Source: Endozoicomonas sp. Mp262
Lineage (GTDB): Bacteria; Pseudomonadota; Gammaproteobacteria; Pseudomonadales; Endozoicomonadaceae
Reading direction: 5' to 3'
DNA length: 32,000 nucleotides
Assembly (NCBI RefSeq): GCF_025643335.1
Contig: NZ_CP092489.1
Span: forward strand, 4,934,581-4,966,580
In this document: piece by piece, positions 5,078 through 5,170 of the stretch
How the letters are laid out: each line of letters opens with the position of its first letter
Position numbering within the stretch: the first letter of the stretch is position 1
Made by a program: the position numbers and the translations under genes
The notes under the pieces: generated by a model
Seen by the model: only the letters and a program-made list of their open reading frames with translations
Database searches by the model: none
What the model was told of the DNA's origin: nothing

Positions 5078-5170
5078 GCAACCCATACCAGGAGCTGCAT
5101 GTTTTTCGCTCATTGCAACCCATACCAGGGGCTGCGAGCATTACCAGTGGCACCTCATACCAGGAAGTGC
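5078..5170 (-). promoter_or_regulatory. thrS 5' leader operator: three tRNA-Thr(GGU) anticodon-arm mimics
   Basis: Minus-strand RNA hairpins are GCAGCUC-CUGGUAU-GGGUUGC (5098..5078), GCAGCCC-CUGGUAU-GGGUUGC (5135..5115) and GCACUUC-CUGGUAU-GAGGUGC (5170..5150). Each has a 7-bp stem and an identical 7-nt loop with U33-like U, GGU at the anticodon positions and A37-like A. Stem differences between copies are compensatory. Confidence 0.75.

Follow-up and report, generated by a model that had tools for sequence, protein, structure and literature searches.

Does the mRNA leader of thrS in Endozoicomonas sp. Mp262 serve as an operator through which threonyl-tRNA synthetase (ThrRS) limits its own synthesis? 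The question is raised by three tandem hairpins resembling the anticodon arm of tRNA-Thr, located upstream of thrS in a 32,000-nucleotide (nt) stretch of this genome (contig NZ_CP092489.1, positions 4,934,581 to 4,966,580 of the forward strand), which is referred to here as the window and whose own numbering is used throughout. The thrS operator of Escherichia coli is the textbook case of a protein repressor that recognises mRNA by tRNA mimicry, and to our knowledge thrS operators have been studied almost only in that species. The E. coli operator comprises domains 1–4 (Springer, Romby and Ehresmann laboratories), and 1KOG is the structure of the ThrRS–operator complex.

In E. coli, ThrRS binds two anticodon-like operator hairpins, one per subunit, preventing binding of the 30S ribosomal subunit. 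The ribosome site there is bipartite, consisting of the Shine–Dalgarno sequence with the AUG and of a single-stranded stretch upstream of the hairpin, and protein S1 is needed; when the anticodon-like triplet is swapped, control passes to another synthetase (PMC11088916, PMC9976931, PMC3858243). Comparison of the Mp262 leader with those of its relatives indicated that it is probably an autoregulatory operator of the E. coli type, composed of three tandem modules and with ThrRS as the repressor.

Three anticodon-arm-like hairpins in the thrS leader

The hairpins, like the other leader features described below, lie on the minus strand. Hairpin 1 (5170-5150, GCACUUC-CUGGUAU-GAGGUGC), hairpin 2 (5135-5115, GCAGCCC-CUGGUAU-GGGUUGC) and hairpin 3 (5098-5078, GCAGCUC-CUGGUAU-GGGUUGC) each have a stem of seven standard or G–U pairs and a 7-nt loop, which is CUGGUAU in all three. 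The array spans −155 to −63 relative to the thrS ATG (5015); the original prediction, which had described three hairpins with 7-bp stems and one identical loop 63–155 nt upstream of the ATG, was correct in coordinates and description. The order along the minus strand is hairpin 1, CACUGGUAAUGCUC, hairpin 2, AAUGAGCGAAAAACAU, hairpin 3, CACUGAAACUU, with a start-to-start pitch of 35 nt from hairpin 1 to 2 and 37 nt from hairpin 2 to 3. Hairpins 1, 2 and 3, when folded singly, adopted the predicted structure or nearly so, at −7.6, −10.0 and −8.1 kcal/mol, respectively. In the numbering of the tRNA-Thr anticodon loop, all three loops read C32 U33 G34 G35 U36 A37 U38. ARAGORN found no tRNA genes in the window.

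Flanking nucleotides extend each hairpin into a larger module. In module 1 (5144–5174), the upper stem GCACUUC/GAGGUGC stands on an internal loop U / CAC and a lower stem CCA/UGG (5174-5172 with 5146-5144). Module 2 (5108–5139) lacks the CAU...CACUG flanks that hairpins 1 and 3 share with the wider family described below, and has its own lower stem GCUC/GAGC (5139-5136 with 5111-5108) in their place, together with a 3′ bulge AAU and the upper stem GCAGCCC/GGGUUGC. Module 3 (5073–5101) consists of the flank CA-U, the upper stem GCAGCUC/GGGUUGC with its loop CUGGUAU, and then CAC-UG(A). In most Endozoicomonas (leaders L084-L087, L093 and L095) the 3′ flank of hairpin 1, at 5144-5149 here, is CACUGGU(A); its UGG pairs with the 5′ CCA in the lower stem, and it duplicates the loop sequence CUGGUA in single-stranded form.

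A repeat search reported the array as a three-copy, 35-nt direct-repeat family over 5073-5179. Hairpins 2 and 3, which differ by a single base, look like a recent duplication (or gene conversion). The original prediction had taken the differences among the stems as a sign of selection on structure: pairing is indeed kept, and other species back this reading, but within this genome alone the argument is weak, because two copies that differ by one base say little about stems or loops. The heptamer CTGGTAT occurs 14 times in the window versus 2.95 expected. Two adjacent open reading frames of ~200 amino acids (15326-15955 and 16022-16621, both minus strand) each contain two copies, 261 nt apart in both (15518/15779 and 16214/16475); the frames resemble tandem paralogues that carry an internal repeat, and they explain part of the excess.

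Homology to domain 2 of the E. coli operator

The comparison set comprised 80 thrS loci from other gammaproteobacterial species (ThrRS 66–85% identical) and the E. coli thrS region, so that the tallies of one-, two- and three-module lineages, here and below, describe a sample among the matches listed and not a census. Domain 2 of the E. coli operator is GUGAUCU-UUCGUGU-GGGUCAC-CACUGCAAAUAAGGA, in which CACUG...AAGGA follows the stem. Among the matches listed, 57 of the 80 loci had the motif GUGRYCU-YUNGUAN-RGRYCAC-CACUGA, with a Shine–Dalgarno sequence after it, 37–49 nt before the thrS ATG, and the carriers included Pseudomonas, Marinobacter, Marinomonas, Microbulbifer, Halioglobus and Zhongshania; by this comparison, the domain-2 module is widespread in Gammaproteobacteria. 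Analysis of perfect hairpins with a 7-bp stem and a 7-nt loop, counted without any prior choice of loops, revealed GU at loop positions 4–5 in 81 of 115 within the 250 nt upstream of thrS (96 leaders), versus 9 of 376 in thrS coding sequence.

A covariance model, R1, was built from 55 such modules (54 of the 80 loci plus E. coli), with the window and all Endozoicomonadaceae excluded. In the underlying alignment, 96.9% of stem positions were paired and three pairs were changed on both sides, and the flanks formed a short lower stem (C–G and A–U in 92–96% of sequences) around a CAC bulge. This lower stem and bulge presumably match the lower stem and internal loop described for E. coli domain 2. 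When R1 was run across the whole 32-kb window with filters off, the best match was hairpin 3 (5102-5070; 23.3 bits, E = 1.1e-5) and the second best was hairpin 1 (12.5 bits, E = 0.05). Together with the excess of CTGGTAT and the loop counts above, this ranking sets the array apart from chance. Apart from the two leaders whose hairpin 1 is remodelled, R1 also matched hairpins 1 and 3 in all the other Endozoicomonas leaders (E 5e-4 to 1e-7), always upstream of thrS, with homologues of hairpin 1 reaching E = 1e-5 to 2e-7. Judged by these matches, the hairpins and their flanks share ancestry with domain 2 of the E. coli operator, and module 3 is the closest of the three to it.

The original prediction had presupposed an Rfam model of the thrS leader as a point of comparison. 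Rfam 15 holds none: the E. coli thrS leader gave no match even at E ≤ 10, and because E. coli's own leader matches nothing, the thrS operator family is evidently not curated there. A search of the window with Rfam 15 likewise returned nothing relevant at the gathering threshold or at E ≤ 10, chance matches being to mir-148 and Phage_DGR (E 0.9–3).

The Mp262 and E. coli leaders share their position before thrS, the 7-bp hairpin with a 7-nt loop bearing U33, N34, G35 and U36, the flanks CA-N ... CAC-UG that form the lower stem and 3-nt bulge, the Shine–Dalgarno sequence UAAGGA, and the presence of at least two anticodon-like hairpins to serve a dimeric repressor. They differ in that Endozoicomonas has three near-identical modules of the domain-2 type, whereas E. 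coli combines one domain 2 with a long domain 4 that is unlike it. Endozoicomonas stems read GCAG.../...UUGC, those of the E. coli type GUGR.../...YCAC; loop position 37 is A instead of G, and an extra 5′ helix (P0, described below) is present. By these comparisons the Endozoicomonas leader is a distinct variant, with three domain-2-type modules at fixed pitch, no domain-4-type hairpin, the added P0 and a long, variable spacer before the ribosome-binding site.

Conservation across Endozoicomonas

The leaders of relatives were read via exact-protein look-ups, and one further Endozoicomonas-type leader came from a metagenome pattern scan. The ten further leaders thus obtained belong to two close relatives (three contigs), Endozoicomonas numazuensis, sp. 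8E, E. elysicola, E. acroporae, E. ascidiicola, E. montiporae and a metagenome contig. The original prediction depended on the hairpins recurring in related genomes, and three modules with a pitch of 34–38 nt were found in all 11 Endozoicomonas leaders examined (ThrRS 86–97% identical where measured). The 97%-identical relative, represented by the two contigs L082 and L083, has a remodelled first stem that still bears a UUCGUAU loop.

Ten leaders were aligned with MAFFT, the anchor being contiguous sequence, with no selection on loops. The three helices were 95.2% paired in this alignment and six pairs were changed on both sides; none of 500 shuffles reached the observed helix score, and slid registers dropped to 20–52% paired. 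RNAalifold recovered the same three helices and the lower stems unprompted, including both the upper and the lower stem of module 1 and the lower stem of module 2, in which compensatory changes occur at one pair in four sequences. The upper helix of module 2 was 100% paired in 10 Endozoicomonas leaders, and that of module 3 was 98.6% paired across the genus, with two pairs altered on both sides.

The loops of the ten-leader alignment varied in a specific manner. G35-U36-A37 was unchanged in 30 of 30 loops, and position 34 was G, C or U, the three threonine wobble bases; the loops of E. ascidiicola carry UGU, CGU and GGU, one per loop. This variation fits ThrRS as the reader, because ThrRS must accept all three isoacceptors and relies on G35 and U36. 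U36-A37 is also the determinant for the N6-threonylcarbamoyladenosine modification at position 37 (t6A37) of ANN-decoding tRNAs, and the invariant U36-A37 would likewise suit a conserved leader read by a factor other than ThrRS (candidates being the t6A machinery and an anticodon nuclease), or one that simply stabilises the mRNA. We regard such a leader as quite improbable: a fixed G35 with a free position 34 is the identity pattern of ThrRS and not that of ANN anticodons in general, the element was found only before thrS in R1 scans of the window and the Endozoicomonas leaders, and the homologous E. coli operator binds ThrRS with genetic and structural proof (1KOG; PMC11088916).

A neutral tandem or palindromic repeat, of the repetitive extragenic palindrome (REP) or miniature inverted-repeat transposable element (MITE) kind, that expanded by chance upstream of thrS would also be detected as a three-copy direct repeat in which two copies differ by one base. 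This origin is very improbable, given that the same locus, pitch and three copies are found across the genus in species whose ThrRS is only 86–89% identical, that the stems carry compensatory changes around an invariant GUA, that the window holds no further copies, and that the upstream genes vary between species while the leader remains with thrS. The original prediction had proposed an E. coli-like operator of tRNA-Thr anticodon-arm mimics with a variant architecture, and this is supported by the R1 homology, the conservation in the genus, the compensatory changes and the invariant G35-U36-A37. On these comparative grounds, the three-module array is a conserved cis-regulatory RNA and, by homology, a member of the E. 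coli thrS operator family.

Putative promoter, additional helices and ribosome-binding site

A putative sigma-70 promoter, already noted in the original prediction, lies upstream of the array (5289–5318; −35 TTGACA at 5318-5313, an 18-nt spacer and −10 GAGAAT at 5294-5289). The site matches at 10 of 12 positions and is the sole sigma-70-like match in 4950-5700; the predicted transcription start is near 5282, and the predicted leader is ~267 nt long. A TTGACA followed after 16–18 nt by an nAnAAT-like hexamer is likewise present upstream of the array in most Endozoicomonadaceae leaders, despite differing upstream genes, which supports the promoter call that the original prediction had rated as weak. 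Because a promoter-like site sits upstream of them and recurs in most relatives, the hairpins are probably transcribed within this ~267-nt leader. Just upstream of the putative promoter is a 19-nt inverted repeat (arms 5354-5372 and 5445-5463, 89% complementary, with 72 nt between).

In its minimum-free-energy fold, the leader is predicted to form a long-range helix, P0 (5174–5273), in which GAUUUUC (5273-5267) pairs with GGAAAUC (5180-5174). P0 starts just past the predicted transcription start, encloses a variable insert and ends immediately 5′ of hairpin 1. Equivalent arms, GAUUUUCUC...GAGAAAAUC, occupy the corresponding position in E. numazuensis, sp. 8E, E. elysicola, E. acroporae, E. ascidiicola and L095, and a difference of the CUC/GAG versus CCU/AGG type between species keeps the pairing, by an unscored reading by eye.

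Between module 3 and the ribosome-binding site is a further hairpin, which the original prediction had placed at 5066-5047 and which extends to 10 bp at 5068-5045 (P4, 5045–5068; UUAGGUUCUG-UGAA-CAGAACCUGA). P4 folds at −12.4 kcal/mol (z = −5.3) and was seen in this strain only, among the leaders examined; it is missing from L082/L083 (97% ThrRS identity) and from L084 (94%), whose spacers are otherwise alignable and 40 nt long. A dispersed repeat was considered as the nature of P4 and rejected, the window holding no second copy. The ribosome-binding site (5013–5030) consists of the Shine–Dalgarno sequence AAGGA (5030-5026), a 10-nt spacer (AUACCUUACG U) and the AUG (5015-5013); UAAGGA is the Shine–Dalgarno sequence of E. 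coli thrS too (PMC3858243). A hairpin able to sequester the Shine–Dalgarno sequence or the start codon is weak (−2.9 kcal/mol, z = −1.0).

From the 3′ end of hairpin 3, 48 nt lead to the Shine–Dalgarno sequence and 62 nt to the AUG, with P4 in between. The original prediction had stressed that the closest hairpin lies ~60 nt from the start codon and does not abut the Shine–Dalgarno sequence; the distance stands for this genome, but it is partly strain-specific, because P4 is inserted here and absent from the 97% and 94% relatives, in which the gap is 40 nt. In E. numazuensis (L085:700-800; L086), an 18-nt unit, AUGCCUAUAGCGGCUUAG, is present between hairpin 3 and the Shine–Dalgarno sequence in two copies and a degenerate third; the two full copies are mini-open reading frames encoding MPIAA-stop, and the unit resembles the thrS start region AUGCCUGUAAUU. 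The motif AUACCGUAUAGCGGUAAGG (5178-5196, upstream of hairpin 1) in the window is related to this unit, and such units suggest rearrangement of the leader. Kissing of the loop sequence GGUAU (5157-5161, 5122-5126 and 5085-5089) with AUACC between the Shine–Dalgarno sequence and the AUG (5020-5024) was set aside as probable chance, because the match is only 5 nt long, was noticed post hoc and is unconserved in E. elysicola, E. montiporae and E. coli.

We also considered a transcription attenuator that senses threonine or tRNA-Thr, in the form of a T-box or a leader peptide. Bacillus thrS is under T-box control (PMC3997798), and a reading frame is open from GTG 5153 into thrS. However, no Rfam family, T-box included, matches the leader at E ≤ 10, and no terminator-like hairpin with a U-run was found near thrS. 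The loops carry the anticodon (NGU), whereas a T-box specifier would carry the codon (ACN). The leader is, moreover, not coding, because spacer lengths differ between species by non-multiples of three (33, 34, 35, 40 and 62). These data already contradict an attenuator, which we hold to be scarcely credible.

A coding N-terminal extension of ThrRS through the same open frame, as in a 664-residue relative, was rejected on the spacer lengths and on the conserved N-terminus at 5015: in every ThrRS relative, residue 1 lines up with the start of MPVITLPDG. In that relative, the 97%-identical one (L082:801, protein P0002, 664 residues), thrS is annotated from an ATG within hairpin 3, which gives a false extension of 21 residues; the structured leader causes start-codon miscalls.

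Module number and spacing in related lineages

Across Endozoicomonas, the distance from the last hairpin to the AUG ranges from 33 to 107 nt, and that to the Shine–Dalgarno sequence from 21 to 93 nt. Most species have three modules at a pitch of 34–38 nt with the last hairpin 33–40 nt from the AUG. This distance is 62 nt in the window (pitch 35 and 37), 69 nt in sp. 8E (pitch 38 and 37) and 107 nt in E. numazuensis (pitch 38 and 37), compared with 21 nt in E. coli, which has domains 2 and 4. As read from these leaders, constraint acts on the module pitch and not on the distance to the ribosome-binding site.

In sister lineages the last module abuts the Shine–Dalgarno sequence, 20–28 nt from the AUG, unlike in Endozoicomonas, with the same pitch of ~36 nt and NNNGUAN loops as here. 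The Spongorhabdus-like XeTr1 and StTr2 have three modules (AGAGUAU, CUGGUAA and AGAGUAG/AAAGUAG; pitch 35 and 37; 22 nt to the AUG), with stems that keep GUG.../...CAC, and Sansalvadorimonas has two (pitch 37; 25 nt). Parendozoicomonas has one clear module and a second hairpin with a GGUAU loop upstream (28 nt to the AUG). The unrelated metagenome-assembled genome Ww184 (L063:1390-1500; ThrRS 70% identical) shares this arrangement, with three modules (loops UUGGUAU, UUGGUAU and AUAGUAC; pitch 32 and 37) and 20 nt to the AUG. Some of these loops are atypical (AGAGUAU, AGAGUAG and AUAGUAC). Endonucleobacter has one intact module and remnants, 39 nt from the AUG. Tandem arrays of this kind may have evolved repeatedly, or they may predate Endozoicomonadaceae.

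Most other gammaproteobacteria, among the matches listed, have one module and a domain-4-like hairpin. These single-module leaders (Pseudomonas, Marinobacter, Marinomonas, Halioglobus, Microbulbifer and others) have the same domain-2 motif, often with a second hairpin 45–60 nt 5′ of the first whose loop is YUNGUYU or ACUGUGA; their one copy lies 16–28 nt from the AUG, in contrast to the three copies and longer spacer of Endozoicomonas. In Methylococcales, Thiotrichales and some others, a tRNA gene and a terminator are located directly upstream of thrS (L024, L025, L030, L032, L048, L053, L055, L057, L058, L060, L061, L065, L067, L070 and others); judging by its sequence, the tRNA is presumably tRNA-Val. 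Most of these leaders are without a domain-2 hairpin, L048 having both, and thrS control apparently differs in these lineages.

Since the distance to the AUG varies while the pitch is tightly kept, the geometry of the ribosome-binding site does not seem to be the constrained quantity. This pattern, together with the A-rich, single-stranded linkers, speaks for a leader in which ThrRS binds the hairpins with an output other than 30S competition, namely mRNA decay (for example by exposing the A-rich linkers to RNase E or shielding them from it), Rho-dependent termination or a buffer that titrates ThrRS. We judge this unlikely. No terminator-like structure was found, and the last module abuts the Shine–Dalgarno sequence in the sister lineages (L001, L094, L091, L092 and L063), so that the ancestral mechanism was probably E. 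coli-like.

Proposed mechanism of repression

In the proposed autoregulatory operator, each module presents a 7-bp helix whose 7-nt loop imitates that of the tRNA-Thr anticodon (Y32 U33 N34 G35 U36 A37 N38), and most modules add a 3-nt bulge and a short lower stem. When ThrRS is in excess of uncharged tRNA-Thr, the free homodimer would bind the loops via its anticodon-binding domains, as it does with tRNA. The ~36 nt pitch (14–16 nt linkers between the 7-bp stems) would allow neighbouring modules to dock on the two subunits of one dimer, and the third module could serve as an alternative register or accommodate a second dimer. Bound ThrRS would keep the 30S subunit off the leader and the ribosome-binding site and so lower thrS translation; tRNA-Thr, competing for the same sites on ThrRS, would relieve the repression. 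We infer ThrRS binding, its stoichiometry and the block from a distance of 33–107 nt by homology with E. coli.

Several observations weigh against this picture. The split ribosome-binding site of E. coli, with a hairpin ~10 nt 5′ of the Shine–Dalgarno sequence, has no counterpart in Endozoicomonas: module 3 does not abut the Shine–Dalgarno sequence, the interval being 48 nt here and 21–93 nt in the genus. Three sites are a mismatch for a dimer with two. In the R1 search of the window, hairpin 2 ranked only fifth, at 9.1 bits and by its stem-loop alone, which is not significant by itself. The within-genus covariation counts come from 10 related sequences only, and the shuffle controls overstate significance for this reason. 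Finally, whole-leader minimum-free-energy folds sometimes disrupt hairpin 3; we attribute this to the arbitrary ends of the folded sequence, since RNAalifold, applied to the alignment, keeps the hairpin.

Because module 3 lies far from the Shine–Dalgarno sequence, the geometry of steric competition in E. coli is not simply transferable, and a block by exactly the E. coli steric clash is unlikely. The most economical idea is that bound ThrRS would cover the A-rich single-stranded linkers and the spacer, which would otherwise be a landing site for S1 or a standby site. It is conceivable, though doubtful, that the three-hairpin array assembles a higher-order complex (two dimers, or one shuttling between registers) that represses from 33–107 nt via standby or S1 occlusion or mRNA decay. 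If true, such higher-order repression from a distance would be a mechanism distinct from the direct competition at a split ribosome-binding site in E. coli.

By analogy only, the AspRS and HisRS of yeast also read anticodon-like elements in their own mRNAs (PMC9976931, PMC6542539), and in tandem riboswitch and T-box arrangements a repeated sensor can sharpen or extend the response (PMC12452182). These systems are unrelated to the Endozoicomonas array in sequence, organism and mechanism.

The thrS gene and its neighbours

thrS (3084–5015, minus strand) encodes a ThrRS of 643 residues with the domains TGS, tRNA_SAD, tRNA-synt_2b and HGTP_anticodon, the full E. coli domain set. The protein shares 100% identity with the ThrRS of Endozoicomonas sp. 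Mp262, its next relatives being those of other Endozoicomonas (86–97%), and it matches the E. coli ThrRS structures 1QF6 (E ~1e-278) and 1KOG (E ~1e-185). The gene order is thrS-infC-rpmI-rplT, with IF3, L35 and L20 identified downstream. The usual genes after rplT are pheS-pheT. Directly after rplT in the window is a gene (228-1604, minus strand) for a 458-residue protein that has a BIR (inhibitor-of-apoptosis) domain and, at its C terminus, a C3HC4 RING finger, a eukaryote-like protein of the inhibitor-of-apoptosis type in a bacterial symbiont.

Significance of the probable three-module operator

Searches of the accessible literature turned up no account of a multi-hairpin thrS operator, nor any of Endozoicomonas thrS. 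The alignments obtained here would support a new Rfam family, and they would correct miscalled thrS starts such as the 664-residue annotation beginning inside hairpin 3. Drift of the wobble position among the three real threonine anticodons, with G35-U36-A37 fixed, would amount to an evolutionary read-out of the identity rules of ThrRS. Three sites do not fit a two-site dimer, and the distance to the ribosome-binding site varies; in a whole genus of animal symbionts that appears to use three copies of the module at a fixed pitch, these two features would test by natural variation the reach of the steric-competition model.

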